Positions 17 through 30,869 are shown, counted from the stretch's first letter. The stretch is 64,000 nt of DNA from an uncultured Candidatus Saccharibacteria bacterium (GCA_964507275.1 CAZDPG010000001.1:547555-611554), one strand, 5' to 3'. Translations and numbers: made by a program. The notes: generated by a model not told the origin, from the sequence alone.

Positions 17-1600
17 ATGGTCGTTGATAAGAAACACCTCTTGAGTAAAAGGTGGCTCAGTATCTACTTATTCCGTGATGAGTCTGATAATCAAATTAAG
101 ATTGACCTCCGTTCAAAGAAGATTATCTCCGACCCTAAGTCGGTGTTCAACAAAACAAACTGCGCTTACTTGGTTGACTACGCGACTCTAAGCGTGGAAG
201 AACAAAATGTTATTTCTGAAAACACCCTCTACAAAAACAAGGATTCTTTTGTTGGATACGTTACGTCAGGTTCAAACATCAACACCATTAACTTTTCAGT
301 TTTAAGAGATACTGGTGGCGAGGCAAACCAAATATCTGAGGGTTCTGTGCTTAGAACTACGATATATGGCAACGAAACTCTCTATCAGGTGATAAACGGA
401 AACACCAAAGAAGAACACCTTGAGAATTTTGATACTCACGGTTTCGTGGTGGGTATCGCAAGGAAACTCGGTAAATACAACCGAACACTTAAGACGCTGG
501 ACGTTAGCAAGTGGGTTCCCTCCATATACTCACCGTTATTTTTCGCCAATAACGCTGTTGTAACTCCCGCAAAGCTTAGGGAAATTGCCCGAGACTCTGT
601 TGGTAGATTGCCGAACTCAGATTACGAAATACCGATTAACGATATAAATTCTATTGTTACGCACAACACCGCTATCCTAGGCATATTGGGTATCGGTAAG
701 TCGTGCCTTGCATATGAACTCATAAAGCGCGTAACTGACGAAAACATAAAGGTTATCGCCATAGACATAACCAACGAATACAAAAAGGAACTACCGCCTT
801 ATATACCTACAGCGGGCGGGATAGTCTCTGATGATGAAAATGCTTTTAACGACATAAATACCCGTTACGAGTTCATTCATACAGAGGGAGCAGGAGCGGC
901 GGCAAAAGAGAACCCTGATAAAAGCGGTAACCTTGCTGAGTATAAAGTTGCGGTACACAAAGACCTCTGCCAGTTTTTGTTCGGAACAGACGAGGTACCC
1001 GAGAACAAGGACTTTGAAGATACTAAGAAAGTAAGAATTTATAACGTTGACTATCACAAGGCGTCTAGGGGCGAAAAGATTGGCTATAAGGTTCTTACAA
1101 CCGACCTAACTCAAGCTGAAAAGACTAGGGTTATAACCGAGGAGCTTTTCAAAATCCTGATGAAAATTCCGTTGGCAGACGAGAAGAAAGCAAAAGTATT
1201 CGTGGTCTTTGAGGAGGCGCACTCGTTGATACCTGAATGGAATTCAGTCGCAAGTGAGGGGGACAAAACAGCCGTAAACGGAACGGCCAAAGTAATCTTG
1301 CAGGGTCGCAAATACGGTCTCGGAAGTATGGTTATTACCCAAAGAACTGCGAACGTAAGCAAAAGCATTTTGAATCAATGCAATACAGTGTTTGCTCTAC
1401 GCGTCTTTGACGATACGGGAAAGGACTTCTTGGCAAATTACATAGGTAGGGATTACGCAGATACTCTCGCTACTCTTGAGGAAAGGCACGCAATTGCTAT
1501 AGGAAAGGGTTTGAGGCTAAGACAGCCAGTCATTGTTCAGCTTAACCAGAGAGAAAATCTACTTCCCGAACCTACGCCTGAACCCGAGGGAGTAGTCTAG
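17..1600 (+). CDS. HerA/FtsK-like P-loop ATPase (DUF87/AAA-like domain family)
   Basis: 527-aa ORF. Walker A GILGIGKSCLAYEL and Walker B KVFVVFEEAHSLIP are present. C-terminal ITQRTANVSKSILNQCNTVFALRV signature is characteristic of HerA/DUF87 ATPases. Lies in an AT-rich segment unlike the rest of the window. The true N-terminus may lie upstream of the window. Confidence 0.55.
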   Translation: MVVDKKHLLSKRWLSIYLFRDESDNQIKIDLRSKKIISDPKSVFNKTNCAYLVDYATLSVEEQNVISENTLYKNKDSFVGYVTSGSNINTINFSVLRDTGGEANQISEGSVLRTTIYGNETLYQVINGNTKEEHLENFDTHGFVVGIARKLGKYNRTLKTLDVSKWVPSIYSPLFFANNAVVTPAKLREIARDSVGRLPNSDYEIPINDINSIVTHNTAILGILGIGKSCLAYELIKRVTDENIKVIAIDITNEYKKELPPYIPTAGGIVSDDENAFNDINTRYEFIHTEGAGAAAKENPDKSGNLAEYKVAVHKDLCQFLFGTDEVPENKDFEDTKKVRIYNVDYHKASRGEKIGYKVLTTDLTQAEKTRVITEELFKILMKIPLADEKKAKVFVVFEEAHSLIPEWNSVASEGDKTAVNGTAKVILQGRKYGLGSMVITQRTANVSKSILNQCNTVFALRVFDDTGKDFLANYIGRDYADTLATLEERHAIAIGKGLRLRQPVIVQLNQRENLLPEPTPEPEGVV

Positions 1601-1846
1601 GAATTCAGGTCGTAAAAGTGATAAAATAGCTTTGGTTCTACAAGCCTAACCCCTAAGCAATGAGGCCTAGGGTATGGCACATAAATTCCCACGCAAATAG
1701 AAGCGGCCACATAAGCCGACATTCATTTGCGTGGGTCTGTATCCGAAAGGTTACAGGGTAATTTCCGAAAGGGAGTTGCCGTCGGTCTTGTGTGGCCACT
1801 TCTGTTTCCACGCTAGGCTCTTTACTAGAAAACCCACGCAAACAAT

Positions 1847-3835: not shown

Positions 3836-4582
3836 TTGCGCTCATGGTATTCTCGACATATGTTTCCAACGATTACCCCGGAAATGGCATCTCTCCTCAT
3901 CCCGATTGGCGGGCTTGTCCTTATCTCAGCCGTCGCACGAACTATCCATTTCGAACTCTTTGAGAAATACTTCAAGCTCACGTTCGCGGATGCACCGGTG
4001 TGGTCCCTGTTCTATTTCGGCATATGGACGGCGCTCGTGGCACTCCTCTTCCCGGCGCAGGCACAGGCGCTCTTCGCCGACGTCTCGATCCTCGGATACC
4101 TCGTACTCGCGTTCATGCTCATCGTCGTCTTCCCGATGCTCTACCGCGCACTACGCGAGAGAGACGGAAGCCCTGAGTGGCTCATTGCTCTCTATCCGGA
4201 TGAAGGGATGCTCACACTCGGCGAGCGCTATATCCTGGCGAAGATAGCTGATGTCGCCTTCCAACAGCTCATCAGTGGCATCCTTATCCTTACTCTGTCT
4301 ACGGCCGGTGTATCGTATCCGGCCATCGTTGGAGTGTTCATCGGTCTTTTTGCCGCGGCGCATTTGTATATTTTCCGTACGGACGGTCTCCTCTGGGGTC
4401 TTCATTACACGACCTATGCTGCACTCGGCGGTTTCGCGTTCCCATTCCTGATTCTGTTCGTTCCTGGGGGCATCGTGTACGCCATCCTTATTCATATGTT
4501 CTTCTACGTTTTTTCCGGTATCTTCTTCGCAAAGTTGCCGCGACCAAGTACAACCATCGCCCACGAATTCAGCGGGACCTGA
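3836..4582 (+). CDS. polytopic membrane protein, hypothetical
   Basis: 248 aa with about 6 hydrophobic helices. No recognisable motif. Confidence 0.45.
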   Translation: MRSWYSRHMFPTITPEMASLLIPIGGLVLISAVARTIHFELFEKYFKLTFADAPVWSLFYFGIWTALVALLFPAQAQALFADVSILGYLVLAFMLIVVFPMLYRALRERDGSPEWLIALYPDEGMLTLGERYILAKIADVAFQQLISGILILTLSTAGVSYPAIVGVFIGLFAAAHLYIFRTDGLLWGLHYTTYAALGGFAFPFLILFVPGGIVYAILIHMFFYVFSGIFFAKLPRPSTTIAHEFSGT

Positions 4583-4605
4583 CGTCTAAGAAAGCGACAG
4601 GTAGA

Positions 4606-4643
4606 AACAAACGCGGCGCCAAAAGGCGCCGCGTTTGTTTCTA
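4606..4643. terminator. bidirectional rho-independent terminator (perfect inverted repeat)
   Basis: aaacaaacgcggcgcc-aaaa-ggcgccgcgtttgttt is a 16-bp perfect stem, flanked by T/A runs, between convergent genes (3836..4582 + and hup -). Confidence 0.75.
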
Positions 4644-4657
4644 CGAACTGTCTTACC

Positions 4658-4930
4658 TTATTTGACCGCGTCCTTGAGAGCCTTCGCTGGGCGGAACTTC
4701 GCCGTGCGTGTTGCTGCGATCTGAATCGTCTCGCCAGTGCGGGGATTGCGACCCTGGCGTGCTGGACGTGCCTTCGTCGCGAAGATACCGAGACCAGCGA
4801 TCGAGACTTCGTCACCCGACTTGAGGCCGTGAGTGATGGAATCGATAACAGTCTCAACAGCGCGCTCTGCATCGGCCTTCGTCGAGCCGAGAACGCTGTG
4901 CACCTTATCGACAATATCTGCTTTGTTCAT
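4658..4930 (-). CDS. hup: DNA-binding protein HU
   Basis: 90 aa. MNKADIVDKV...GFGIFATKARPARQGRNPRTGETIQI matches the HU/IHF fold arm region. Confidence 0.9.
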   Translation of the reverse strand: MNKADIVDKVHSVLGSTKADAERAVETVIDSITHGLKSGDEVSIAGLGIFATKARPARQGRNPRTGETIQIAATRTAKFRPAKALKDAVK

Positions 4931-10686: not shown

Positions 10687-12486
10687 GTGTGCAATGCCCA
10701 CTTCGCACGAGGCGAAGCACGCTATACTCATATGTATATGCACGTTTCAGAAGGGGAACTGAAAGAATTCATCATCGACTCCGGACTCGTCGCAAAGAAG
10801 GAGATTGATGACGCGGCAGTTGAAGCACAGAAGCGAGGTCAGTCGCTTGGCGACATACTTGTCTCGCGCGGATCACTCACCGAAGACGCGCTCCGGCGTA
10901 TCCAGGCTTATGTGCTCGGTATTCCGTTCGTCAGCCTGAAGGACCACCGCATATCGGTCGACGTCCTCTCTCTTATTCCCGAGCCGATCGCCCGGACGCA
11001 CAACATCATCGCCTTCAAGAAATCAGGAGACTCGCTTGAAGTGGCGATGCTTGATGTTGAAGACCTCGCGTCTATCGAGAGCATTAGCAAGAAGACCGGG
11101 CTCAAGATCTTGCCACGATTGACCGATACGGAGAGCATCAAATCTGCGCTTCTTCAGTACCAGAAATCACTCAAGGATGAGTTCGGCGATATTATTTCAG
11201 CCGAAGCAGGGAAGATCCTCGTCGTCGGTGACGCGGGGAAGGATCTCTCGGGTGATGATCTGAAGAAAATGGCCGAGGACCTGCCGATCGTGCGCATCGT
11301 CGACACACTCCTGCGCCATGCGGTCGTGCAGAGCGCTTCCGACATCCATATCGAACCGATGGAGGACCAGGTGCTCGTCCGGTATCGCATCGACGGTATC
11401 CTGCACGATGCGATGACACTCCCGAGATCGGCAGCGGCCGGCATCATAGCGCGTATCAAGGTGCTTTCTAACCTCAAGCTCGATGAGAAGCGTCTTCCTC
11501 AGGATGGCCGTTTCAAGATGGAGACGGAGGCGGATCGTGTCTCATTCCGCGTATCAATCCTACCTACCTTCTTCGGAGAAAAAACTGTTATGCGTCTCTT
11601 GCGCGAGACGGGCGAAGGTTTTACGCTCGAGGGACTCGGATTCCATGGCGAGAATATGGAGCGCATCCACCACGCGCTCAAGCAGACGACCGGTATCATC
11701 CTCATCTCAGGACCAACCGGCTCGGGTAAGACGACAACACTCTATACGATGCTCGATATCTTGAACCGGCCGGACGTAAACATCTCCACCGTCGAAGACC
11801 CTATCGAATATCAGATGAAGCGGATCAATCAAACCCAGGTGAACCCACAGATAGGCTTCACGTTCGCCTCTGGTCTCCGCTCGCTCGTGCGCCAGGACCC
11901 GGACATCATCATGGTTGGCGAGATCCGCGACAGCGAAACCGCTTCGCTCGCAATCAATGCCGCTCTCACCGGCCACCTCGTGCTCTCAACCATCCACACG
12001 AATAGCGCCGCTGGGGCGATACCGCGACTCATTGATATGGGTGTCGAGCCTTTCTTGCTCGTCTCGACCATCCGAATCATCGTCGGCCAGCGACTCGTGC
12101 GCAAGCTCTGCGAGAGTAAAGAAGCCTATTCGCTGAATGCCGCAACACGCGGGAAAATAGCGCCAGCTGCCGAATTCGATATCGCTTTCAAAGCTCTCCA
12201 TGATGAAAAACTAATAAAGGCAGAATCGACGATTGATGATATTCCGTTCTATCATCCTGTTCCGGCAGACGAGTGCGAAGATGGTTACAAGAGCCGCATC
12301 GGCATCCACGAAGTCCTTTCAATATCTCCCGCTATCCGGGAAACCATGCTTCGTTCGAGCACAAGCGACGCCATAGAGGCGCAAGCGAAGAAGGAGGGGA
12401 TGCTCACCATGTTTGAGGATGGCTTATATAAAGCAGCCCGCGGCATCACCAGCCTTGAAGAGGTCCTGCGAGCGGTCAGCGAATAA
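10687..12486 (+). CDS. pilB: type IV pilus assembly ATPase PilB (GspE family)
   Basis: GspE N-terminal domain, Walker A LISGPTGSGKTTTLYT, Asp box and His box. The start may be the M at 10732 or 10738. Confidence 0.85.
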   Translation: MCNAHFARGEARYTHMYMHVSEGELKEFIIDSGLVAKKEIDDAAVEAQKRGQSLGDILVSRGSLTEDALRRIQAYVLGIPFVSLKDHRISVDVLSLIPEPIARTHNIIAFKKSGDSLEVAMLDVEDLASIESISKKTGLKILPRLTDTESIKSALLQYQKSLKDEFGDIISAEAGKILVVGDAGKDLSGDDLKKMAEDLPIVRIVDTLLRHAVVQSASDIHIEPMEDQVLVRYRIDGILHDAMTLPRSAAAGIIARIKVLSNLKLDEKRLPQDGRFKMETEADRVSFRVSILPTFFGEKTVMRLLRETGEGFTLEGLGFHGENMERIHHALKQTTGIILISGPTGSGKTTTLYTMLDILNRPDVNISTVEDPIEYQMKRINQTQVNPQIGFTFASGLRSLVRQDPDIIMVGEIRDSETASLAINAALTGHLVLSTIHTNSAAGAIPRLIDMGVEPFLLVSTIRIIVGQRLVRKLCESKEAYSLNAATRGKIAPAAEFDIAFKALHDEKLIKAESTIDDIPFYHPVPADECEDGYKSRIGIHEVLSISPAIRETMLRSSTSDAIEAQAKKEGMLTMFEDGLYKAARGITSLEEVLRAVSE

Positions 12487-12520
12487 AGATACAGATGTTT
12501 CAAAGCGTCAATAAGAAGTA

Positions 12521-12549
12521 TTGACTTTATATGTGTTTTGTTATATTCT
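12521..12549 (+). promoter_or_regulatory. candidate sigma70-type promoter (TTGACT...TATATT) upstream of the secreted-protein gene
   Basis: TTGACT at 12521, TATATT at 12542 (15-nt spacer) or TATTCT (17-nt spacer). GGAGG ribosome-binding site at about 12599 before the ATG at 12611. Confidence 0.3.
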
Positions 12550-12610
12550 GAAAATGGACTGGAATTTGTCCAAAATGCTGTTTCATTGAAATCAACTGAG
12601 GGAGTCAACC

Positions 12611-13063
12611 ATGAAAAAGAGCATGTTCTTGGCGCTGTTTCTGGCGTTTGTAGCCACTGCCGCGCGTGCCGACGGCGAAGTGTATTTCCAAGGGAACAAC
12701 AGTTTCGGGGCGTCGGTCTTCTCGGCCGGCTCTGCGAACTTCACCTTCGGATCCGCGAATGGCGGACCTGCAGTGTTCTCGGGGAACGCCTTCACCGCGA
12801 CCGGCGTATCGCAGATTCAAGGCTTCATCGGCTTCCAGGCCAATGCTTTCGTGCCGTCTGGCACGGTAGGCACAGCCTCGGCAGGTGGCTACGTGTCGCA
12901 CGTCTTCGGGGCGGGGCATCAGGGTGGGACATCCTATCCGTCCTACAGCACCCAGGTGCAGACGTGGTCCAGTTCGTCCGGCGAGGGGAGCGCGAGCTCC
13001 AATGTGAACATCGGCGGCAACGCTGTGTTCCATCCAGTACAGATGGGCGGCGGGAAGGGCTGA
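12611..13063 (+). CDS. secreted Gly/Ser-rich protein with Sec signal peptide, hypothetical
   Basis: MKKSMFLALFLAFVATAARA|DG signal peptide. Low-complexity G/S/A-rich mature part. Confidence 0.55.
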   Translation: MKKSMFLALFLAFVATAARADGEVYFQGNNSFGASVFSAGSANFTFGSANGGPAVFSGNAFTATGVSQIQGFIGFQANAFVPSGTVGTASAGGYVSHVFGAGHQGGTSYPSYSTQVQTWSSSSGEGSASSNVNIGGNAVFHPVQMGGGKG

Positions 13064-13067
13064 AGAA

Positions 13068-13931
13068 ATGAAAACCCTTACCCTCCTTCTGTCTCTGCTG
13101 GTCGCCTCGCCCGTATGGGCGCAGACGGCCAACAGCACTGGCTCAGCGACATCAGCGTCGGGGAATGTGGTGAACGACCTCGTGACGAATTTCAACTCTT
13201 CGCCAACGCCAGCCGCGCCGATGGTATCGACACCGTCGCTCATGCAACCGCAGATTTTCGGGGCACTGCAACGTACCCCAGTCGGCGCAAGCGTAGGCGT
13301 CACGGCAGGGTATTTGAAAACCTGCCAGGTGAAGTACACCCGAGCGACTCTGCCGGAAGTACGGTCGAGAGAAGGAGGGTCGGGGCACACCACGCTGGTA
13401 TTCGCCCCTCACCCGACATATCTCACTCTCGAAAGGGAGCGGGAGAATGTGCAGGTGGAAGAAGTAACACCACCTACATTTTCTCACGAGGCCGTGCCCA
13501 AGGTCGTATGCCTGGGCACTGTAACGGCCTTCTCGAACGACGGCGCGACAACTGGATTTGAAACCATAGTCGCTGATATCGCGCGGTTCCCCTTCGAACA
13601 CATGCGGGGAATTCGCGAGGTTGTCATCGTCGCGATGCCCGCAGGTATCGCCTCGGCCGGAGGGGTGTCCTCATCTGCAAAGTCGTTTGGCCTCGGTACC
13701 GGCGTGTCGCACGTGATAAGCGCAATGACCGCCGGTGTTATCGCCCCCAGCTTCTCAGGTGGGGGCGGTGAGAGTCGTCCGCAAGAATGGGTCGGCGGAA
13801 CGTTCATCCTCCTCGGCGTTGCTGAGGGCGGAAAGGATATTCTGCCGAGCGACTTCGCGGCACTCTTCAACCCGACGACATCCAACGGCAGCTCCAGCAA
13901 CAACGGAGCGAAAATGGAAGCGGCGAAATAG
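13068..13931 (+). CDS. secreted protein with Sec signal peptide, hypothetical
   Basis: MKTLTLLLSLLVASPVWA|QT signal peptide. 287 aa. Confidence 0.55.
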   Translation: MKTLTLLLSLLVASPVWAQTANSTGSATSASGNVVNDLVTNFNSSPTPAAPMVSTPSLMQPQIFGALQRTPVGASVGVTAGYLKTCQVKYTRATLPEVRSREGGSGHTTLVFAPHPTYLTLERERENVQVEEVTPPTFSHEAVPKVVCLGTVTAFSNDGATTGFETIVADIARFPFEHMRGIREVVIVAMPAGIASAGGVSSSAKSFGLGTGVSHVISAMTAGVIAPSFSGGGGESRPQEWVGGTFILLGVAEGGKDILPSDFAALFNPTTSNGSSSNNGAKMEAAK

Positions 13932-13948
13932 TTCTTGTGTGCCGATTG

Positions 13949-13992
13949 CACGCGCAGTCTTCTTCGAAAGAACTGCGCGTGTTTTGTTTTCT
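13949..13992 (+). terminator. rho-independent terminator
   Basis: CACGCGCAGT..(loop)..ACTGCGCGTG is a 10-bp stem followed by TTTTGTTTTCTT. Confidence 0.7.
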
Positions 13993-14012
13993 TCGTGGTA
14001 CGATTATTTTGA

Positions 14013-15227
14013 ATGAAGTTTCGCGCAACGATACAGAAAGAAGGGGTGCCGAACCAGGAACGAATTATTGAAGCGCCATCGCGTTTTGCTGTCTATGAGC
14101 AGATAGAAAAAGAAGACGAAGTTGTCGTCAACCTTACTGAACTTTCCGGCGCGTTTGCCCTCCCTTCATGGCTTTTCATATCATTCGGTACGGGCATAAA
14201 ACGTTCAGAAATAATCCGCATGGCAAAGAATCTTTCTGCCATGCTCGGCGCAGGACTCTCGCTCGCGCGTGCACTCTCGGTCATTGAGCGTCAATCAGAC
14301 AATAAGCATTTGAAAGCGGTCGCGCTCGGTCTTTCCGAAGCAATCAAACGAGGCGCATCCTTCCATGAAGCTCTCGCGGCATACCCGCATGTATTCTCGG
14401 AATTGTTCATCGCTATGACGAAAGCAGGGGAGGAGTCCGGAGGATTGAACGGAGCGCTGCAGATCGTCGCATTGCAAATGGAACGCTCGGAAGAGCTGGT
14501 CCGTAAGGTCCGCGGGGCGATGATTTACCCAGGAATCATCATCACCGCGGTCGGCATCGTCGGCGTGCTCATGCTCATCTTCGTCGTTCCCACCCTCACG
14601 AGCACGTTCACCGAGCTCGGCGTGGAGATACCGCTCGCTACACGAATGATCGTCAGCCTCTCTGATTTCTTGGCAGCGCACGCATCTCTTGTACTTGCCT
14701 TCATTGCCCTCCTCGGCGTGGGAAGTGTCGCGTTCGTCCGATCAAAAACTGGCGGCAACATCATACTCGCCATTGCCCTCCGAGCACCGGTCATAAAAGA
14801 GCTCGTGCGCGAAACGTACACTGCCCGCGCGGCACGCACTCTCTCGTCCCTTCTTTTCTCCGGTGTGCCGGTGCTTGAAGCGCTTGCCATAACAAAAGAA
14901 GTCGTGCATGCCAGGGTTTTCGCGAATGTGGTTGAAGAAGCATCGACGCATGTGCGGAAAGGAGAGCTTCTATCCGCAGCGTTTTCTAATCATCCAAAAC
15001 TGTATCCTATATTAATGAGCGATATGCTTGCCGTCGGCGAGGAGACAGGGAAAGTCACTGAGATGTTGCAACAAATTGCAGAGTTCTATGAAGAAGATGT
15101 TGCAGAAAAGACAAAGGATCTATCGACCATCATTGAACCAGTGCTCATGATTGTCATCGGTATCGCGGTTGGTATCTTTGCTGTCTCCATGATTTCGCCG
15201 ATATATTCGCTCTCGGGAGCGATATAG
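14013..15227 (+). CDS. pilC: type IV pilus assembly platform protein PilC (GspF family)
   Basis: 404 aa with two GspF domains and three TM segments. Confidence 0.85.
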   Translation: MKFRATIQKEGVPNQERIIEAPSRFAVYEQIEKEDEVVVNLTELSGAFALPSWLFISFGTGIKRSEIIRMAKNLSAMLGAGLSLARALSVIERQSDNKHLKAVALGLSEAIKRGASFHEALAAYPHVFSELFIAMTKAGEESGGLNGALQIVALQMERSEELVRKVRGAMIYPGIIITAVGIVGVLMLIFVVPTLTSTFTELGVEIPLATRMIVSLSDFLAAHASLVLAFIALLGVGSVAFVRSKTGGNIILAIALRAPVIKELVRETYTARAARTLSSLLFSGVPVLEALAITKEVVHARVFANVVEEASTHVRKGELLSAAFSNHPKLYPILMSDMLAVGEETGKVTEMLQQIAEFYEEDVAEKTKDLSTIIEPVLMIVIGIAVGIFAVSMISPIYSLSGAI

Positions 15228-15240
15228 AACTCCTTAAAAA

Positions 15241-17007
15241 CTACCTCACAATCGCGTACGTCCCAGGCAAGACCGCCCACGAACCGCCCGGTCCATTCGA
15301 GAAGCTCGCACTCTGCAATCCGCTCACATACGTTATCGTCGCATTATTCTGCAATTCCAAGCGCTTGGCGGTTACCTGATTCGCCGTCGTGCCATTACTG
15401 ATTTCTATGCCGCCATAGGGCGCGTACAATATGACGCCGGATGTATTGTTCGACATTTCAATAGCTTCTGATCCGGTGTTCGTGCTTATGATCATCGGGA
15501 AGCTGCCTGCGCTTCCATTCCCCTCGATAACGACATTGTTCGAAATGGAGACCCTCCCGGTCGTCGTCGTGGCATTTGTCGCATCGGCAATAAGTACCGC
15601 ACCACTCGTGCCGACGCTTGGCGAGACGAGTAGGGAAGCGTTGTTCGAAAGGAAGATGTTCCCATTCACCCACACCGGGCCTGAGAGAACGAGGGTGGCA
15701 CCGTTCGAAATACTGAGATCTCCATTTATCTTCGCCGGGCCGAGCGTCCGGGAACCTGAGTATGAATACGACCCTGATATCACTTGTCCTGCGGCCGCAG
15801 TTTCCTCCCAGTCTGCAATCTGAGCGTCGGAAATGGGAAGTGGTGCAGGATTGGCGTCGGCAGTTCCCGGATATGAGACCCCCCCAACCGAACAGCTGGA
15901 GATGACCTGATAGGAGGCAGTCCCCCCGACCGAACAGCTGGAAAGCGTGTGTGCCCACGCGTTTCCACCAACAGTCACGCCACTCAGCGAAGTTAATATC
16001 CCATCCCGATAGGTCTTGAACCCGAGGTCACCGGTGATACTCGTCCATGTCGGATTCTGGATGTTCCAGTTACTACTGGATTTTGCGGCTCCTCTCGAGT
16101 ATGAGCCGTTGCTATCGCGCGCCCAGACGAAATAATTGCTCGCATTCACCGATGCAATCGCAATAATCCAATACGTCTGATCCATCGTGAGGGTAGGGGT
16201 GCTGTCGAGGGTCGCTTCAGCAAAGCCGTATGAGGTGGTCACGAGGGACGCAGGAATCGTACCACTCGCAAGTACGGTCGTCCCCGGCTTGCCGCCATTA
16301 TCTGTCACTATTTTCAAGATAAGATTGCTGGGATTCCCTGTTTTCTTCACGTTCAAACTAACTCCTGCGAGTGCTGCGCTCGCCGATGGTTTAAACGATT
16401 GAGCAACGTCCGCGTGCGCCGATGTATCACCTATATTGAAACTGCTGTTCTGCACGGTCATCTGCTGATCCGCAACCGTGTCCGTGCCTACGGCGACAGT
16501 CGCATCGCCGGTTATCGTCCCGCTTCCGGAAACATTGCCATTAGAGAACAGGTTCCCATCTATGCGCGAACCGTTGTTCATAGTCACACCGCCACTCCCT
16601 ATCTGAACGCCATAGCGGAATGAGACGATCGACGAGTTTATCGTCGCGGTCACTCTCACAATTCTCGTAGCAGTCGGATGCACACTGTCTGGAACCGACC
16701 CAGTTACGGTTATGTGTTTCGTATTGCCGTCGACGCTCGCGACCGAGACGCTGAACACACCATTGCCGAGCGGTGTATCAATCTCTCCGGAATAACCGGC
16801 ATCCTGGTTGAGCTCATAAATGGCTTTGTCTATGCCCGCATCGGCAAGCGCCTGCGCTTGCGCCTCAGCGAGCGCGGAGCGTTCAGCATGCACCGCGCTT
16901 CCATAATAGTTGAAGAAGCCGGTTGTAACGGTCATGACAACGGCACTCACAATAAGAGAAAGTATGAGAATGTACCCTTGAGAAAGTGCTGTTGAGTATC
17001 GTTTCAT
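15241..17007 (-). CDS. large minor pilin / pseudopilin-like protein with Asn/Gly-rich β-helix-like repeats
   Basis: The N-terminal hydrophobic segment QGYILILSLIVSAVVM is prepilin-like but lacks Glu5. 588 aa with repetitive NG/SG-rich blocks. Last gene of the pilin operon. Confidence 0.5.
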   Translation of the reverse strand: MKRYSTALSQGYILILSLIVSAVVMTVTTGFFNYYGSAVHAERSALAEAQAQALADAGIDKAIYELNQDAGYSGEIDTPLGNGVFSVSVASVDGNTKHITVTGSVPDSVHPTATRIVRVTATINSSIVSFRYGVQIGSGGVTMNNGSRIDGNLFSNGNVSGSGTITGDATVAVGTDTVADQQMTVQNSSFNIGDTSAHADVAQSFKPSASAALAGVSLNVKKTGNPSNLILKIVTDNGGKPGTTVLASGTIPASLVTTSYGFAEATLDSTPTLTMDQTYWIIAIASVNASNYFVWARDSNGSYSRGAAKSSSNWNIQNPTWTSITGDLGFKTYRDGILTSLSGVTVGGNAWAHTLSSCSVGGTASYQVISSCSVGGVSYPGTADANPAPLPISDAQIADWEETAAAGQVISGSYSYSGSRTLGPAKINGDLSISNGATLVLSGPVWVNGNIFLSNNASLLVSPSVGTSGAVLIADATNATTTTGRVSISNNVVIEGNGSAGSFPMIISTNTGSEAIEMSNNTSGVILYAPYGGIEISNGTTANQVTAKRLELQNNATITYVSGLQSASFSNGPGGSWAVLPGTYAIVR

Positions 17008-17573
17008 AGGTTGCGCAAATAGATGTGTTCACGAAGGTGCGTCTGTATGGTCTCACTCCTCACAATCGCGCTCGTCGTCGCATCGACAATAATGTTTGTC
17101 ACGGAAGGGAAGCTTTGGGTATCGTACACGAAACTGAGTGCACCGAGAACATTCGTTAATCGTTTCTCCCCGGACAGACGACTACTTCCTGGCGCCGCAT
17201 CGATAAGCCGATACGCGACGGTACTCGAAGCGTGGATGCCAATGTAATCATAGGCGCCGGCAATAATAGCGCCCGAGGCATCGACGGAAGGAAGTTCAAA
17301 GAGGACGGTTGTTGTGCTGGAATTATAATTCAAACCGGAAAATGCATGCGTCGCAACAATCTGTCTGGCCTGTGACCCTGCATCACGCACGGCATCCATG
17401 ATGTTATTTCCGCCAAGCGCGACTTCGATTGAGGATTTTTGGGAAATGATGACGCGCCCATACACGACATAGAGCTTCTCAATGGCGAGTATGAGGATCA
17501 CGGAAAGAGCGATGGTGATCAGCACTTCGATGAGCGTAAAAGCGCTATGAGTAGGTATTTTTTTCATACTCAT
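17004..17573 (-). CDS. type IV pilin-like protein (prepilin-type N-terminal domain)
   Basis: THSA|FTLIEVLITIAL is an N-terminal methylation-type motif with Glu5. Confidence 0.65.
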   Translation of the reverse strand: MSMKKIPTHSAFTLIEVLITIALSVILILAIEKLYVVYGRVIISQKSSIEVALGGNNIMDAVRDAGSQARQIVATHAFSGLNYNSSTTTVLFELPSVDASGAIIAGAYDYIGIHASSTVAYRLIDAAPGSSRLSGEKRLTNVLGALSFVYDTQSFPSVTNIIVDATTSAIVRSETIQTHLREHIYLRNL

Positions 17574-17971
17574 ATGCCGCCCGTTCGAGTGATAAGCGTC
17601 GTGAGCGACACGACCCGATCGAGGTTATTGGCACCCCGCCAGGAAACTCCGACCATTACCTGCTTCGTATCCGCGTTCAGAGCGGTCAGGCTCGTGCTTG
17701 CTGTTCCTTGCGGCAAACTCGTCAATTCGGGGACAGAAAAAGAACCTCCTGCAGGGAGCGCCTCATATCCTCCTGCGCGCAGTTCATCAAGTTTCGCACC
17801 TGCAATATGAAATGCGACGCTCTCAAATGCCGCATCGCGAGTGACTTTTATCGTCCCCGTTACGATTGTCACGAATCCGGCCGCCACACTCATGATGAAG
17901 ACCGCAATCAACATCTCGATCAAGGTGAATCCTCTCTTTCTCTGCAGGGGCATCATCTGGAAGTATAGCAA
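17570..17971 (-). CDS. type IV pilin (possible major pilin)
   Basis: Leader MMPLQRKRG|FTLIEMLIAV is a classical prepilin cleavage motif. 133 aa. Confidence 0.7.
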   Translation of the reverse strand: MLYFQMMPLQRKRGFTLIEMLIAVFIMSVAAGFVTIVTGTIKVTRDAAFESVAFHIAGAKLDELRAGGYEALPAGGSFSVPELTSLPQGTASTSLTALNADTKQVMVGVSWRGANNLDRVVSLTTLITRTGGI

Positions 17972-22464: not shown

Positions 22465-23967
22465 TTGATGGGAGCGCTCATCGCCATCGTATCTGGATTC
22501 GCGAGCGGGATATTTTTCCGCTCGCTTTTTTATTTCGGATGGGAGCTCATCGTGTTCTTGATATTTCTCGCTCTGCTTTTCGGCAGTGCTGCATTCATAA
22601 AACCGCGTGCGCTGTATTCTCTCTGCGCGATCTTCTTCATTTTCGTAGCACTCGGCATGATGCGTTCATCAGCAGCTGACACGCCGTTGCCGGAAACATT
22701 TGCGACACAACTTCGGCATCGCGTGTCATATGACGGAGTCGTGGTATCCGATCCGGATGTGCGCGATGCGAACCAGCGCATCGAAGTGCGTGTCTCGAAT
22801 GAGTACGAATCAACGAACCTGCTCGTCGTCGCACTGCGATCCCAGACCGTTCGCGTTGGTGATCATGTCTCCGTCTCTGGCACGCTTCTCGTACCGGAAC
22901 CTTTCGATACCGAAAGCGGTCGTGTCTTTCGCTACGACAAATATTTAGAGCGCAGCGGCATTCGTTTCATTCTTAATTTCGCATCCATCCGCGTCACACA
23001 ACCGGCGCCATGGTATTCGGTCTCGGCGGCGCTCGCACGAGCGAAGCATGCATTTCAAGACGGACTCGCGCGAACTGTTCCTGAACCCTTCGCATCGCTC
23101 GGCGGCGGTATCGTCATCGGTGGAAAGTCTGGTCTCGGAAACGAATTGAAAGACACTTTCACTCGAGCAGGTCTCATACACATCATCGTCCTCTCGGGCC
23201 ACAACGTGATGGTCGTCGCAGAGTGGATTATGGCGCTTCTCGCTTTTACGAAACTCTCGAGACGCATGAGCTTGGGAGCTGGGGCATTCGCCATCCTCGT
23301 ATTCGTCGGTATCGCGGGAGCGTCAGCGACGGCCATCCGTGCCATGTGTATGGCTCTCATCGCACTCTATGCGCGCGCAACAGGGCGCTCTTATGCGGCT
23401 GGCCGGGCACTCTTTTTCGTCATCTTCCTTATGCTGCTCTGGAATCCGCTCTATCTCGTCTTTGATCCCGGTTTCGGTCTCTCGATTGCCGCGACCGCAG
23501 GACTCATCTGGCTTGCACCACTGTTAGAGACGAAACTTTCTTTCTTGAAAAATGCATTCTGGAAAGACGCCATTTCGACAACACTTGCGGCGCAGATATT
23601 CGTACTTCCCATACTCCTCTATAACACTGGAAATCTTTCTATCGTCTCGATACCAGCAAACCTGCTCGCTGTGCCGGTCGTCGCTGTCTCTATGGGATTC
23701 TCGGCGTTCGCCGGATTCGCGGGGATGCTCTTCGGCACGTTCGCTCCGCTCGTGGGCATCATGCTTTCATTGCCGGCATACGCTGCGAACGCGTACCTAA
23801 TCTATATCGCACAGAAGGCCGCCGAACTCCCGTTCGCGGCCTTCATGCTCCCACCTTTCCCATTCTGGCTCGTACTCGTGAGCTATGCGACGCTCATTTA
23901 TATAGTATCTTCGAAACGCTTCTCGACGACAGACCAATTGAGGTTCGCAAGGAACGCATCGATATAA
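22465..23967 (+). CDS. comEC: ComEC/Rec2 DNA-internalisation channel protein (DUF4131 plus competence domain, lacking the β-lactamase domain)
   Basis: 500 aa with many TM helices. Central GGIVIGGKSGLGNELKDTFTRAGLIHIIVLSGHNV competence-domain motif. Confidence 0.75.
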   Translation: MMGALIAIVSGFASGIFFRSLFYFGWELIVFLIFLALLFGSAAFIKPRALYSLCAIFFIFVALGMMRSSAADTPLPETFATQLRHRVSYDGVVVSDPDVRDANQRIEVRVSNEYESTNLLVVALRSQTVRVGDHVSVSGTLLVPEPFDTESGRVFRYDKYLERSGIRFILNFASIRVTQPAPWYSVSAALARAKHAFQDGLARTVPEPFASLGGGIVIGGKSGLGNELKDTFTRAGLIHIIVLSGHNVMVVAEWIMALLAFTKLSRRMSLGAGAFAILVFVGIAGASATAIRAMCMALIALYARATGRSYAAGRALFFVIFLMLLWNPLYLVFDPGFGLSIAATAGLIWLAPLLETKLSFLKNAFWKDAISTTLAAQIFVLPILLYNTGNLSIVSIPANLLAVPVVAVSMGFSAFAGFAGMLFGTFAPLVGIMLSLPAYAANAYLIYIAQKAAELPFAAFMLPPFPFWLVLVSYATLIYIVSSKRFSTTDQLRFARNASI

Positions 23968-26320: not shown

Positions 26321-26764
26321 ATGGAGTATCACGTACCGCAGTTCATCGAGGTCGAAGATAAGATCATCGGGCCGTTGACCCTGAAGCAATTCATCTATAT
26401 CGCCGGTGTCGTCGGCCTCTGCGTCGTCTTCTTCTCGTATCTGCCGTTTATCTTTGCACTCCTACTCTCACTGCCCATAGCGGCACTTGGTATAGCGCTC
26501 GCTTTCTATAAAGTGAATGGCAAGCCTTTTATTCAAATGCTCGAAGCAGGTTTTAATTACTACATAAGCGAAAAGCTTCTCCTCTGGAAGCAGGAAGCGC
26601 CTTCTCCGCAGGAGAATGGTGCGGCAGCAGCATCAGCCGCCGCAGCAGATGCTGCCGTACTCGCTGCGCGTAACACACCGAAACTTACTCGAGGGAAACT
26701 TTCCGAACTCGCATGGTCGCTCGACGTGAAGTCGGCCGAGGAGGTGACAAAAAAAGAATCATGA
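26321..26764 (+). CDS. PrgI-family T4SS membrane protein
   Basis: MEYHVPQFIEVEDKIIGPLTLKQFIYIAGVV N-terminus and two TM helices typical of PrgI (conjugation/T4SS) family proteins, plus an Ala-rich tail. Confidence 0.55.
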   Translation: MEYHVPQFIEVEDKIIGPLTLKQFIYIAGVVGLCVVFFSYLPFIFALLLSLPIAALGIALAFYKVNGKPFIQMLEAGFNYYISEKLLLWKQEAPSPQENGAAAASAAAADAAVLAARNTPKLTRGKLSELAWSLDVKSAEEVTKKES

Positions 26765-27402
26765 GTACCACTGCAACAGAAGCGGGGAAGACCCAGCAAT
26801 TCGTCCCTATCAAGGAGATTCGCAATGGCGTCATCGTCCTTAAGGACGGAGGATATCGCGGCATACTTATTTGTTCGGCGGTCAACTTCGGCCTCAAGTC
26901 CGCTGATGAGCAACATGCCATCACCGTTGGTTTTCAGAACTTCCTCAACACGCTCGATTTCTCCATCCAGATTGTCATACACTCGCGCAAGATGGACCTG
27001 CGTCCGTATATCGCGCTTCTCGAGGAGAAAGCGCCTGGACAGAAGACCGAGCTCATGCGAATCCAACTTCGGGAATACATTGAGTTCGTCCGCTCCTTCA
27101 CCGATCAGACAAACATTATGACGAAATCATTCTATGTCGTTGTCTCCTACGCGCCACGCATCACGGTCGCGCACGCGACGAGCTTCCTGCGACATGACAG
27201 CACCGCGACGAAGAACGCTGCGAACGAGACCTCGTTCGAGGAAGATCGCGCACAGCTCGAACAGCGCCTTTCACTCGTCATTTCCGGACTTGCCGGTACT
27301 GGCGTTCGTGCAGTTCCGCTTGGCACCGAAGAGGAGATTGAACTCTTCTATCGCTCATTTAACCCAGGGGAGCTCGAGAACCCTATTCGTCTCGATTCAT
27401 AA
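26761..27402 (+). CDS. VirB4/TrbE N-terminal domain protein (separate ORF)
   Basis: Start at MSTTATEAGK, a 4-bp overlap with the PrgI stop. QFVPIKEIRNGVIVLKDGGYRGILICSAVNF matches the N-terminal region of VirB4-type ATPases. Ends 2 nt before the ATPase ORF, in a different frame. Confidence 0.55.
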   Translation: MSTTATEAGKTQQFVPIKEIRNGVIVLKDGGYRGILICSAVNFGLKSADEQHAITVGFQNFLNTLDFSIQIVIHSRKMDLRPYIALLEEKAPGQKTELMRIQLREYIEFVRSFTDQTNIMTKSFYVVVSYAPRITVAHATSFLRHDSTATKNAANETSFEEDRAQLEQRLSLVISGLAGTGVRAVPLGTEEEIELFYRSFNPGELENPIRLDS

Positions 27403-27404
27403 AT

Positions 27405-29225
27405 ATGGCCTTACTTGATTTTCTCAACCGCAAAGATAAAGAGGAAGCGCCAGCAATCATGCCGGTGCTGCCGAAAGATATCTACAAGCAGAGCTCGCTT
27501 GATCTCGTTGATACCATCGCGCCGACAGCGCTCAGAATAAGTTCACGCGAAATCGAACTCGGAGAAAAGTTCGTCCGTACGTTCTACACCGTCTCCTATC
27601 CGCGTTTCCTCTCTGACAGTTGGTTCTCTCCGGTCATCAATCTCGACAAAGTGCTTGATGTCTCTCTGTTCATCCACCCGATTGAGACCGAACAGGCACT
27701 TCGTAGCTTCCAGAAAAAGGTTGCCGAGGTCCAAAGCCAGATAAATGAAAGGGAATCCAAAGGACTCGTCCGCGATCCACTCCTTGATACGGCATACCAA
27801 GATCTCGAGAGTCTTCGCGACAGCCTACAGCAAGCACAGGAGAAGCTTTTCGATGTCGGTCTCTACCTGGCTCTCTACGGCGACACCAAGGAGGACATAT
27901 CGAAAACTGAAGGGGAGATACGCGGCATCCTGGATGCGAAGCTTGTCTATACCAAACCGGCCCTCTTCCAGCAGGAGCAGGGATTCCGTTCTTGCTTACC
28001 GCTCGGCTCCGATGAACTTCTCGTCAATTCGAAATTGAATTCATCGCCGCTCTCATCGATATTCCCCTTCGTTTCCTTCGATCTTACGAGCGATCGCGGC
28101 ATCCTCTACGGCATCAACCGACACAACTCTTCACTCATCTTGTTCGATCGTTTCTCTCTCGAAAACTACAATTCCGTCATCTTCGCAAAGTCCGGCTCGG
28201 GTAAAAGCTATGCGACCAAACTTGAGATCCTGCGTTCACTCATGTTCGGCACCGACATCATCGTCATCGATCCTGAGCGTGAATACGAACAGCTGGCTGA
28301 AGCGACAGGCGGACGCTCTTTCAATATCTCTCTTTCATCACTCAACCACATCAATCCGTTCGATCTCCCGCCGGTCAAGGAAGATGAGGATCCGAAAGAC
28401 ATTCTACGTTCCAATATCATTTCTCTCGTCGGTCTCTTCCGCATCATGCTCGGCGGACTCTCCCCTGAAGAAGATGCAATTATCGATCGTGCTGTCAGCG
28501 AAACGTATGCGCTCAAGGATATAACTGGGGATACTGATTTCACTGGAGCCGAACCGCCGCTTCTTTCAGATTTCGAGCAAGTGCTCTCCGGCATGGAAGG
28601 AAGTGAGTCCCTCATCAAGCGTCTCTCAAAATACACACGCGGGACCTGGTCAGGATTCATGAATCAACCTACGAACATCGACCTGAAGCAACAGTTCGCA
28701 GTGTTCTCCGTACGCGATATGGAAGACGAGCTGAAGCCAATCGCGATGTACATCATCACGCATTACATCTGGAACGCCGTTCGTCATGACATGAAAAAAC
28801 GCCTTCTCATCATCGATGAGGCATGGTGGATGATGAAGAGCGACGACACTGCGTCCTTCCTCTATTCGCTTGCAAAACGCGGACGTAAATACTATCTCGG
28901 AGTCTGTACCATTACTCAGGACGTCGAGGACTTCTTGAAGAGCCCGTATGGGAGGCCGATCCTTACGAACTCCTCTCTGCAACTTCTCCTGAAGCAATCC
29001 CCAACGACGATTGATGTGCTGCAACAGACGTTCAATCTCACAGACGAAGAGAAATACCTCCTGCTTGAGGCAGGGGTGGGGGAGGGGCTCTTCTTCGCCG
29101 GATTAAAGCATGTCGCCATCAAGATCGTCGCGAGCTATACCGAAGACCAGATCATCACGTCCGATCCCTCGCAACTTCTCGCGATAAAGCAAGAGAAGGC
29201 TCGGTATGCCGCAGAACAGAAATAA
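27405..29225 (+). CDS. virB4: VirB4-like type IV secretion ATPase (C-terminal ATPase portion)
   Basis: Walker A FAKSGSGKSYATK, Walker B LLIIDEAWWMM, and the CTITQDVEDF motif. Confidence 0.85.
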   Translation: MALLDFLNRKDKEEAPAIMPVLPKDIYKQSSLDLVDTIAPTALRISSREIELGEKFVRTFYTVSYPRFLSDSWFSPVINLDKVLDVSLFIHPIETEQALRSFQKKVAEVQSQINERESKGLVRDPLLDTAYQDLESLRDSLQQAQEKLFDVGLYLALYGDTKEDISKTEGEIRGILDAKLVYTKPALFQQEQGFRSCLPLGSDELLVNSKLNSSPLSSIFPFVSFDLTSDRGILYGINRHNSSLILFDRFSLENYNSVIFAKSGSGKSYATKLEILRSLMFGTDIIVIDPEREYEQLAEATGGRSFNISLSSLNHINPFDLPPVKEDEDPKDILRSNIISLVGLFRIMLGGLSPEEDAIIDRAVSETYALKDITGDTDFTGAEPPLLSDFEQVLSGMEGSESLIKRLSKYTRGTWSGFMNQPTNIDLKQQFAVFSVRDMEDELKPIAMYIITHYIWNAVRHDMKKRLLIIDEAWWMMKSDDTASFLYSLAKRGRKYYLGVCTITQDVEDFLKSPYGRPILTNSSLQLLLKQSPTTIDVLQQTFNLTDEEKYLLLEAGVGEGLFFAGLKHVAIKIVASYTEDQIITSDPSQLLAIKQEKARYAAEQK

Positions 29226-29844
29226 CACAAAGCCGCCTGAGGCGATGACATGGTCGAAAGCGGCGCCAATGATTGTTGTCGCTGGTGTCTTTGATCTCGT
29301 GCGAATCTTTTTTGAAATGTTCTGGTTCTTCGGCCCAGCGCTCGTCGCAGTATATTGCTCCATGAGCGTGGGCGACTGGGTCGGGTCTTTATGGGGACTG
29401 ACTGAAGCTGCGTGTACGACGGCTGCCGGTATCGCTGGTTTCTATGGTGCGGCGATAACCATACCGTTCGGAACGACGATGGCGATGGCCACCGGCCTTT
29501 TTGGCTACCTTACACTTGGGTTGTGGATTCTCATGAAGAACCCGCGGATATTCATAGCCAACGCGAGCGGATCGCTCTGGCTTGCTGGCAGCTTCGGCGT
29601 GAGTGTCGTTCCACTTATTGGCGCAATACCGGCCTTTTCGCTCGTTCTCTGGCGCCTGTACCGGACACAGATACACGTCGAGAAGGCGGCGTTAAAGAAA
29701 TGGGAGAAGGAACACGCCTCGGAGAAGCTTCAGGAACGACAGAAACAAACGGCTGAATTCATGCGTATGCAGCAAGAGGCGGCACATGCTGCCGAATATG
29801 AGCAGGATGACGAAATCCCCGAAGAAGTGCGTAGCGCTGCGTAA
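29206..29844 (+). CDS. polytopic membrane protein, T4SS-associated (possible VirB6/TrbL-like)
   Basis: 4-5 TM helices with an acidic C-terminal tail. Embedded in the T4SS-like operon. Confidence 0.4.
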   Translation: MPQNRNNTKPPEAMTWSKAAPMIVVAGVFDLVRIFFEMFWFFGPALVAVYCSMSVGDWVGSLWGLTEAACTTAAGIAGFYGAAITIPFGTTMAMATGLFGYLTLGLWILMKNPRIFIANASGSLWLAGSFGVSVVPLIGAIPAFSLVLWRLYRTQIHVEKAALKKWEKEHASEKLQERQKQTAEFMRMQQEAAHAAEYEQDDEIPEEVRSAA

Positions 29845-29873
29845 ACACCATCCAGAGGCTATATACTAGGAGC

Positions 29874-30869
29874 ATGCGTTCTAGCCTCCTCATCATCTTC
29901 GCTTTCATACTTTTATCGCCGCTTACGGCAATGGCTCAGTCGCTCGATAGTTTGACCGGAAGCGGCGAGCCTTTCTCCGTGTCAATAAACCCTCGCTATC
30001 CAACTCCCTATAGCCAGGCGACCATCTCATTACTTTCGTCTACGCTCGACCTCACAAACGCCACTCTGAATGTCTCGATGGGGAGTAAGCGCGTATACCA
30101 GGGGAACGTGAAGCCAGTCGCCATTCCGCTCGGTAGGGCAGGAAGTGTCGCTTCGGTGTCGGTAACTGTGACCATCGACGGAACGCCATATTCGCAGTCA
30201 TTCGTGATACAGCCTCAAGACGTCGCTCTTGTCATCGAACCGAAAGCATCGGCACCTATCCTCTATCGAGGAAAGCCTCTTATCCCGCTCGAGGGAAGTA
30301 CGCGCGTGGTCTCGATGGCGAACATGCGGGATGCGGGGGGGAAAATAATCCCATCATCATCACTCGCGTACACATGGACGGTCGATGGTACCCAGATAGC
30401 GAGTGCTTCGGGTATCGGCAAGGAAGCTCTTATCGTCGCTTCACCGCTTCAATATCGAGATCGCTCCGTTTCGGTCGTTGTTAGGAGCCAGAACGGATTA
30501 CTCGTAGGAGGAGCCTCCATTTCTTTCTCTCCAGCCGATCCAATGGTGCGGGTATATAAGAACGATCCGCTACTCGGCATCCTTTTCGATCATGCTCTTT
30601 CTGGTACCTATACGATAGCCGACACGGAGGCGACGATCTATGGAGTTCCGTATTCTTTCCCGCTTCTGAGTGGTACACCTCGAATCCAATGGTTCCTGAA
30701 CGGCAACCTCGCGCAGACCGGCGATTCAATAACCCTGCGTCCATCCGGTAACGGGGAAGGGAATGCTTCTCTCTCGGTTAGCGCCTCAGCCGGTACGTCA
30801 GCGAGTGCCGTGACGGAACTGTTGCTTTCTTTTGGTGCGAAAAAGTCATTTAACTTCTTTGGCTTATGA
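29874..30869 (+). CDS. secreted protein with signal peptide, hypothetical
   Basis: MRSSLLIIFAFILLSPLTAMA|QS signal peptide. β-rich, repetitive. Confidence 0.5.
   Translation: MRSSLLIIFAFILLSPLTAMAQSLDSLTGSGEPFSVSINPRYPTPYSQATISLLSSTLDLTNATLNVSMGSKRVYQGNVKPVAIPLGRAGSVASVSVTVTIDGTPYSQSFVIQPQDVALVIEPKASAPILYRGKPLIPLEGSTRVVSMANMRDAGGKIIPSSSLAYTWTVDGTQIASASGIGKEALIVASPLQYRDRSVSVVVRSQNGLLVGGASISFSPADPMVRVYKNDPLLGILFDHALSGTYTIADTEATIYGVPYSFPLLSGTPRIQWFLNGNLAQTGDSITLRPSGNGEGNASLSVSASAGTSASAVTELLLSFGAKKSFNFFGL

Follow-up and report, generated by a model that had tools for sequence, protein, structure and literature searches.

A type IV pilus locus in a putative Candidatus Kaiserbacteria genome: a predicted ComZ-like minor pilin and a probably autonomous cassette for two putatively secreted proteins

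Bacteria in the CPR (candidate phyla radiation, or Patescibacteria) have few conserved surface machines, and type IV pili belong to these; their presumed roles there are attachment to hosts and the scavenging of DNA. To our knowledge, binding subunits of these pili are known within this group only for Saccharibacteria. The type IV pilus locus described here occupies positions 10687-17971 of a 64,000-nucleotide stretch of DNA (CAZDPG010000001.1:547555-611554), which at its full length is referred to below as the window. Seven open reading frames (ORFs) were found in the locus, namely pilB, two genes designated A and B, pilC and three pilin-like genes, the largest of which encodes a protein of 588 amino acids (aa). 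The homologues of this protein are named Candidatus Kaiserbacteria or Paceibacterota, and by these names the genome is placed in Candidatus Kaiserbacteria, within the CPR. The first-pass annotation had guessed a CPR organism and had described a type IV pilus locus in which pilB and pilC are separated by two genes whose products have Sec-type N-termini and no prepilin motif, with an operon of three pilin-like genes convergent to pilC. All of this was borne out, the N-termini being read by eye. The locus is likely composed of two separable parts, an ordinary type IV pilus core and an autonomous cassette formed by genes A and B. Its features are listed below, with positions counted from the first letter of the window.

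10687-12486, + strand: pilB, type IV pilus extension ATPase (T2SSE, E 5.4e-127; MshEN, E 1.3e-14)
12521-12549, + strand: promoter-like site, TTGACT, 17-nucleotide (nt) spacer, TATTCT (consensus scan; conserved -35)
12556-12571, + strand: small hairpin in the 5' untranslated region (5'-UTR), GGAC-N8-GTCC, partly conserved across loci
12611-13063, + strand: gene A, 150 aa, rich in Gly, Ser, Ala, Asn and Phe, predicted secreted (Sec-type signal peptide ARA↓DG; C-terminal GKG)
13068-13931, + strand: gene B, 287 aa, predicted secreted (Sec-type signal peptide VWA↓QT), with a Gly-rich C-terminal half
13948-13995, + strand: intrinsic terminator of A-B, stem-loop 13948-13982 followed by a U-run (-23.1 kcal/mol, z -2.7)
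13996-14004, + strand: TGGTACGAT, located 8 nt ahead of the pilC ATG and possibly an extended -10 element
14013-15227, + strand: pilC, inner-membrane platform protein (T2SSF, PF00482, two stretches, E 9e-55)
15241-17007, - strand: 588-aa modular minor pilin, predicted ComZ-like, in the GspK/PilX position (leader SQG↓YILIL, no Glu5)
17004-17573, - strand: 189-aa minor pilin, proposed for the GspJ/PilW position (HSA↓FTLIEV; N_methyl, E 4.5e-5)
17570-17971, - strand: 133-aa pilin, proposed PilV/GspH/GspI-like minor pilin (RKRG↓FTLIEM; N_methyl, E 3.8e-9)

Both PilB and PilC gave strong family matches. PilB carries the T2SSE domain (PF00437) together with an N-terminal MshEN/GSPII-type domain (PF05157), as is characteristic of PilB/GspE ATPases, and PilC contains the two T2SSF domains of the PilC/GspF platform proteins. 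When PilB was scored against TIGR02538, 540.7 bits were obtained, under the equivalog cutoff of 675.65, so that it is assigned as a member of the superfamily and not as a certified PilB equivalog. PilC reached 239-283 bits with the GspF and PilC models, also under their equivalog cutoffs. The pilB ORF opens with GTG at 10687; since its orthologues, which are 86-88 % identical, are 582-584 aa long, translation probably begins further in, at one of two ATG codons (10732 or 10738). A sub-threshold match to an MshE-type cyclic-di-GMP-binding motif was detected in the PilB N-terminus (residues ~27-72, window 10765-10900; NF053729, 27.5 bits, cutoff 38). Pilus genes are spread over at least three places within the window. 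A second PilB-type ATPase paralogue of 599 aa is encoded at 42661-44460 (- strand; T2SSE, E 6.5e-100; MshEN) with no adjoining pilin or pilC gene, and points to the presence of two pilus systems, or two motors, as in Saccharibacteria. The region at 54079-56552 (+ strand) starts with pilM (PilM_2, E 3.7e-34), followed by three small single-pass membrane protein genes, which look like pilN and pilO.

The operon of three pilin-like genes lies 13 bp past the pilC stop, convergent to pilC. The 189-aa gene overlaps both of its neighbours by 4 bp, and the three genes are translationally coupled. The locus was compared with related loci, designated by numbers between L001 and L018; pairs written with a slash, such as L005/L006, were grouped as one lineage. 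Membership of the operon and the coupling of its genes were found to be conserved in every relative, in either orientation. In L005/L006 (L005 3387-5681) and in L008 (3255-5549) the operon lies directly after pilC on the same strand, whereas in the window it is convergent to pilC, which implies that it was inverted in one lineage. The predicted mature sizes of the three pilins are about 120, 178 and 577 aa. Beyond the RKRG↓FTLIEM and HSA↓FTLIEV leaders, no prepilin motif was found anywhere in the 64-kb window.

The 588-aa protein departs from the usual type IV prepilin pattern, as it lacks Glu5 and gives no match to N_methyl (PF07963). Its leader has Gly at -1 and Leu at +5. A missing Glu5 is a known exception pattern of GspK/PilX-type subunits. 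In an alignment of 54 orthologous sequences, the conservation of Gly-1 exceeds 90 %, and the orthologues in which the leader is present have Leu or Ile at +5. Five of the six orthologue N-termini examined keep Gly-1 and lack Glu5, while the call in L005 starts downstream of the leader. PilX_N matched nine of the 54 orthologues, and some orthologues are labelled as PilX by the Joint Genome Institute. A single hydrophobic segment is present, at the N-terminus (residues 5-33), and the contents of Ser, Thr, Gly and Asn are 13, 10, 11 and 7 %, respectively. The family search returned 304 proteins at E <= 0.001; the best 120 of these 304 are 48-95 % identical, most of them within a few residues of 588 aa in length.

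A confident AlphaFold2 (AF2) model of the 588-aa protein was obtained from the 54 orthologues, with a predicted local distance difference test score (pLDDT) of 84.4 and a predicted template modelling score of 0.69. The model consists of the alpha1 helix (residues 7-68), a four-stranded pilin sheet (74-124) and a beta-solenoid with turns of short strands (~134-187 and 336-560), into which a beta-sandwich (~188-335) is set; it contains, in addition, a single helix at 394-407. The solenoid is followed by a highly conserved C-terminal pair of strands (576-587). This arrangement, as seen in the model and the alignment, is consistent with the topology of ComZ of Thermus thermophilus, in which the solenoid lies between the penultimate and the last pilin strand. 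The chain is predicted to be ordered and not disordered, in agreement with the beta-helical structure expected in the first-pass annotation, and the idea of a beta-helical tip pilin holds, with ComZ as its structural analogue.

The beta-sandwich was recognised as a choice-of-anchor R domain (residues 190-323; NF041539, 39.7 bits, cutoff 30), and orthologues of the 588-aa protein already carry the name choice-of-anchor R at NCBI. It forms a separate inserted unit: the shorter versions of the protein in L005 and L008 (427 and 444 aa) align on both sides of residues ~168-343 and lack those residues. In the usual sense of the name, choice-of-anchor domains belong to proteins with a C-terminal sorting signal; the 588-aa protein has such a domain built into a pilin instead. 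Fold searches with the whole chain also returned CBM-like and PHR domains as well as phage tail and baseplate proteins, aligned over ~110-190 residues. Dozens of phage tail, baseplate and fibre proteins were retrieved from a viral fold library, the best with 17-24 % identity over ~150-190 residues. As these were whole-chain searches without aligned ranges, we attribute the CBM-like, PHR and phage matches to the sandwich provisionally.

When the model was searched with Foldseek, ComZ (PDB 6QVI) ranked second; in the structural alignment the two proteins are ~14 % identical. ComZ has been described as a GspK-like pilin domain with an ice-binding-protein (IBP)-like triangular solenoid and no recognisable pilin sequence motifs; a subunit of this type has been argued to fit only at the pilus tip, where ComZ binds DNA (PMC6561018). 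The 588-aa protein is predicted to show the same combination of a GspK-like pilin domain and an IBP-like triangular beta-solenoid. Unlike ComZ, it has the extra choice-of-anchor-R sandwich in the solenoid and is acidic. The cell envelopes probably differ as well: the CPR host very likely has no outer membrane, whereas Thermus is a diderm. GspK, for its part, has an alpha-helical insertion and not a beta-solenoid, and the 588-aa protein scored below the curated cutoffs of the GspK and PilX families.

A further comparison is offered by Nanosynbacter lyticus TM7x, a member of the Saccharibacteria. Its large minor pilins PilX1 and PilX2 are equipped with accessory domains, and no PilD signal is predicted in them; efficient binding to the host requires PilX2 (PMC11623550). 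The 588-aa protein shares with them the design of a large minor pilin with an accessory binding domain and a non-canonical leader. This is a likeness by description. The accessory domains in TM7x are a beta-jelly-roll and a seven-bladed beta-propeller, compared with the beta-solenoid and the choice-of-anchor-R sandwich found here. Pilins have been reported to be barely conserved between Patescibacteria phyla. The candidate tip subunit belongs to the known modular minor pilins, together with ComZ, GspK, CofB and PilX1/PilX2 of TM7x, and what is new is that a solenoid of the ComZ type and an inserted choice-of-anchor-R sandwich come together in one protein, and this in a lineage of the CPR. A literature search found no pilus literature for the Kaiserbacteria lineage.

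With ComZ counted as the best structural match, the 588-aa pilin could be read as a ComZ-type DNA receptor of a competence pilus that feeds ComEC. DNA binding by ComZ at the tip (PMC6561018) agrees with this, and so does the presence of comEC ~5 kb away (22465-23967, + strand; Competence and DUF4131 domains), in a neighbourhood that is conserved from RecJ to ComEC in L009, L010, L017 and L018, all of which keep the order TIM-PGK-HIT-RecJ-RNase H-ComEC. The linkage to comEC is, however, loose, and the gene stands among housekeeping genes. No sequence similarity to ComZ was found, so that its DNA-binding lysines cannot be mapped onto the 588-aa protein. The 588-aa family is acidic (mean isoelectric point ~4.8, net charge ~-9), and residues 336-588, which include the C-terminal part of the solenoid, contain only 6 Lys and Arg residues in 253; this is a weak argument against DNA binding. 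The inserted sandwich, moreover, resembles carbohydrate-binding and phage receptor-binding modules. A role as DNA receptor is considered doubtful; with an acidic surface and a sandwich of receptor-binding-like character, the protein is more readily taken for an adhesin, which is the role favoured here.

The 133-aa protein, for which the start may be the TTG at 17971 or the ATG at 17956 or 17953, displays all the features of a class III signal peptide. It had been proposed as the major pilin, and the three-gene operon might in that case provide the whole filament, as in Com or type II secretion system pseudopilus operons. The protein is small, it is encoded by the first gene of the operon and its leader is canonical; besides, the only prepilin motifs in the window are its own and that of the 189-aa protein. 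Its best profile matches, however, were those to PilV (E 4.5e-8, residues 13-66), GspH (E 6.2e-7) and GspI (E 3.5e-3), which extend past the leader, whereas the major-pilin models GspG, PilA and ComGC matched the leader only, at E 0.002-0.03. The 4-bp overlap with the next gene suggests approximately equal synthesis of both products, and a major subunit would be in large excess. The window covers 64 kb of a contig of ~673 kb, and a major pilin may lie elsewhere in it. In TM7x, the pilA genes lie in other loci (PMC11623550). In view of its better matches and its coupling to two minor pilins, a minor pilin of the PilV/GspH/GspI-like kind is a likelier identity for the 133-aa protein than the major pilin, and it seems rather unlikely that the operon encodes a complete filament.

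The 189-aa protein has all prepilin features except for Ala at position -1, where Gly is found in four of the five orthologues examined and Ala in L005. Its profile matches were at leader level only. In PDB sequence searches, the 133-aa protein matched with its leader helix only and the 189-aa protein gave no match. Gene order and size point to the GspJ/PilW position for the 189-aa protein, and the three proteins would probably form a GspI/J/K-like (PilV/W/X-like) tip or priming complex.

Genes A and B, located between pilB and pilC, encode proteins whose signal peptides were read by eye from the n-h-c pattern. The product of gene A begins with MKKSMFLALFLAFVATAARA↓DGEVY and that of gene B with MKTLTLLLSLLVASPVWA↓QTANS. 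In both cases the n-, h- and c-regions and an AxA-type site are kept in the homologues, and neither a Cys at +1 (lipobox) nor a prepilin motif was seen. No further hydrophobic segment was found in A or B beyond the signal peptide. Two Cys residues are invariant in B among seven close homologues. Homologues of A (47-93 % identity) lie directly upstream of every close B homologue, in L007 as an uncalled ORF at 4234-4716. Two distant B homologues (30-34 % identity), one of them on a Yonathbacteria contig, are also preceded by a small secreted Gly/Ser-rich gene.

The B family is rare. A word-indexed search gave 7 clusters and an exhaustive profile search 78 representatives, all of them unnamed, and scans of genomes and metagenomes with the alignment of close B proteins yielded no loci beyond those already known. 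No Pfam or NCBIfam family was matched by the A and B proteins of the window. Among 48 members of the B family no Pfam match was obtained, and NCBIfam gave only three isolated single-member matches (E 0.0015-0.005). The B profile detected only noise among PDB sequences, nothing better than E 0.4, and the AF2 model of B, built from a 7-sequence alignment, had a pLDDT of 40 and was unusable for a fold search. No significant internal repeat was found in A beyond its composition (best offset 19, z 2.7). Known families, among them curli/Fap-type amyloids, S-layer proteins and pilus accessory proteins, were considered for the pair and set aside, as no profile match was obtained.

The A-B pair is equipped with transcription signals of its own, and both the internal promoter at 12521 and the strong terminator at 13949 suggested in the first-pass annotation proved to be real features. 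Taken alone, the site at 12521 is a weak consensus match, the region containing 10 such sites compared with 5.2 +/- 1.8 in shuffles. Its -35 element, (G)TATTGAC(A/T), recurs at the same place upstream of A in all six close loci, in differing genomic contexts, as do a -10-like hexamer and a Shine-Dalgarno sequence. The GGAC...GTCC hairpin of the 5'-UTR is kept in the window, L001 and L005, with a variant, GGATC...GGTCC, in L008; L007 has a different hairpin at this position and L003 no clear equivalent. It is followed by the ribosome-binding site GAGGGAG (12598-12604) and may serve in mRNA stabilisation or regulation. A GC-rich hairpin with a T-run stands after gene B in all eight loci examined. 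The possession of a promoter, a 5' hairpin, a ribosome-binding site and a terminator suggests an abundantly expressed pair of secreted or cell-surface proteins.

A short conserved element was also observed in front of pilC. In the window and in L017, L005/L006 and L008, TGnTACGAT precedes the pilC ATG by 7-8 nt, and the remaining spacer differs between lineages. No Shine-Dalgarno sequence was found in the last 20 nt before pilC in the cassette-bearing pilB-pilC loci. TGnTACGAT might act as a promoter of the extended -10 type, from which pilC would be transcribed into a leaderless mRNA.

The order pilB-A-B-pilC is seen in the window and in L017, whose DNA is 90 % identical to that of the window, as well as in L005/L006 and L008. 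These correspond to three lineages (window/L017, L005/L006 and L008), which are only 63-66 % identical in B and ~69 % in PilC. In L001/L002, pilB is followed by a toxin-antitoxin pair, (an IS200 transposase), A-B and then an unrelated 868-aa protein, with no pilC. In L003/L004 the cassette was found between an MFS transporter and RNase HII, and in L007 between PBP1 and dnaN, a junction that is empty in the window. In L012 and L013 (Yonathbacteria contig) it resides in housekeeping neighbourhoods.

No A-B cassette is present where pilB meets pilC in L018, L009 and L010. L009 and L010 have the same synteny as the window (ClpP, NusA, pilB, pilC, three pilins, TIM, PGK, HIT, RecJ, ComEC), and the distance from the pilB stop to the start of pilC is 1 nt in the former and 77 nt in the latter. 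L018 extends from comEC into pilB, which is incomplete. It is closely related (PilC 85 %, PilB C-terminus 94 % and RecJ 95 % identical), and its junction reads TAG-GC-ATG. The 77-bp pilB-pilC spacer of L010 (~11983-12058) contains a perfect 14-bp inverted repeat, CCCCGTATGACAAC...GTTGTCATACGGGG, which may represent a hairpin with a regulatory role or else the trace of an insertion or excision.

The promoter and terminator of its own, the absence from relatives and the copies away from pilus genes identify A-B as an autonomous cassette and not as a demonstrated pilus component. Judged from these sequence features, it is an autonomous transcription unit that, in the window lineage, occupies precisely the interval from the stop of pilB to the start of pilC, and its link to the pilus is positional only. 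The first-pass annotation had treated the secreted proteins as integral to the pilus locus and as candidates for host attachment. If so, A and B would be pilus-associated host-attachment factors, functionally coupled to the pilus and co-expressed with pilB and pilC. Both proteins are indeed conserved and predicted to be exported, and the comparison of synteny that the annotation had called for upheld part of the proposal, as the pair recurs between pilB and pilC in three divergent lineages and stands downstream of pilB in L001/L002. The other part was not supported: the pair is missing in L009, in L010 and in L018, the PilC of which is 85 % identical, and the copies in L003/L004, L007, L012 and L013 are remote from any pilus gene. 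It has, in addition, its own conserved promoter and terminator, and neither protein contains a pilin motif or a known domain. Functional coupling of A and B to the pilus is therefore not supported by the comparison and is judged unlikely.

Regarding the history of the cassette, its divergence (B 63-72 % identical) tracks that of housekeeping genes (~67-70 %), so that both an ancestral presence with losses and a spread by homologous recombination are possible. Only short and probably chance matches were detected when the flanks were inspected for target-site duplications or terminal repeats, for example AAAGATACAGA at 12485 and AACGATACAGA at 14027, and a transposition mechanism is not claimed. 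The GC content of the cassette (57 %, compared with 52-55 % in the flanks) reflects Gly and Ala codons, and no transfer was deduced from it. By its distribution and signals, A-B appears as an independent module scattered through Parcubacteria and probably highly expressed.

A more speculative idea is that A, as a small subunit rich in Gly, Ser, Asn and Phe, and B, as its conserved partner of ~290 aa, constitute a previously unrecognised secreted two-protein system of Parcubacteria, which builds a surface fibre or matrix and, in Kaiserbacteria, works with the pilus at the contact with the host. Signals of the kind expected for an abundant mRNA would agree with it, and it would explain both the retention of the pair in the pilB-pilC operon of several lineages and the proposed leaderless promoter of pilC. 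It is nevertheless regarded as quite improbable.

In the favoured two-part reading, PilB would act as the extension ATPase and PilC as the platform of the type IV pilus core, while the three coupled minor pilins would assemble into a GspI/GspJ/GspK-like priming complex that ends up at the pilus tip. The 588-aa subunit, at the GspK/PilX position, would combine the pilin helix and sheet with a rigid IBP-type solenoid and the extra sandwich; being bulky, it would fit only at the tip, as argued for ComZ. It would most likely be the ligand-binding head of the pilus, with a host cell or another surface (glycan) favoured over DNA as its target. The A-B cassette would have split the pilB-pilC operon, bringing along its own strong promoter, 5' hairpin, ribosome-binding site and terminator. 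Where the cassette is present, pilC would be served by TGnTACGAT through a leaderless mRNA, in replacement of the tight pilB-pilC junction of L009 and L018. That the 588-aa protein is not a pilin and is instead a surface beta-helix adhesin held by an uncleaved N-terminal signal-anchor is very improbable: the missing N_methyl match and Glu5, the single hydrophobic segment and the presence of a choice-of-anchor domain, typical of surface proteins with other anchors, would suit such a protein, but Gly-1 is conserved before the hydrophobic helix, PilX_N matches occur in the orthologues, and in every relative the gene shares an operon with those of two bona fide prepilins, to which it is coupled.

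Several observations weigh against the two-part reading and its assignments. The 588-aa protein of the window gave no match to Pfam PilX_N and reached 18 bits with the GspK profile, for which the cutoff is 130. The profile of its 54 orthologues matched no PDB chain at E <= 10, ComZ and GspK included, so that the resemblance to ComZ is at the level of the fold only. The GspI and GspJ assignments of the 133-aa and 189-aa proteins derive from gene order, size and weak profile matches, and the proposal of a leaderless pilC mRNA from a 9-nt motif in three lineages. Finally, the cassette stands just downstream of pilB in four of six lineages, which shared ancestry could explain, although a functional link is possible.

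Some other features were recorded in the window. A cluster resembling a type IV secretion (T4SS) or conjugation system extends over 26321-32712 (+ strand) and comprises genes for a PrgI-family protein (26321-26764), a VirB4/TraG P-loop ATPase (27405-29225) and a protein with a T4SS pilin domain (30866-31501), with several unassigned ORFs between them. At 17-1600 (+ strand) there is a HerA/DUF87-type ATPase gene, the second such ATPase. It is followed by a match to the Rfam LOOT RNA (RF03000) at 1643-1780 (+ strand), with 66.1 bits compared with a gathering score of 46.4. The genes dnaA (34007-35359) and dnaN (35472-36572) stand beside yidC (32700-33440, - strand). The GC content dips to 42 % at 34-36 kb and the cumulative GC skew has its minimum at ~30-32 kb; the region 32000-36600 is probably the replication origin. 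A large serine recombinase with Resolvase and Recombinase domains (58956-60602, - strand) slightly overlaps tRNA-Leu(gag) at 58890-58977 and is followed by a gene for a 727-aa protein without family (61333-63516, - strand). The serine recombinase/tRNA-Leu region may be the edge of an integrated element. A 317-aa lamin-tail domain protein (LTD, E 4.3e-9) is encoded at 48927-49880 (- strand), adjoining tRNA-Lys.

The co-encoded secreted proteins A and B should not be assumed to be pilus factors. For the pili of Kaiserbacteria, the locus provides a confident structural candidate for a tip subunit, which is predicted to be of the ComZ type and to carry a receptor-binding-like sandwich.

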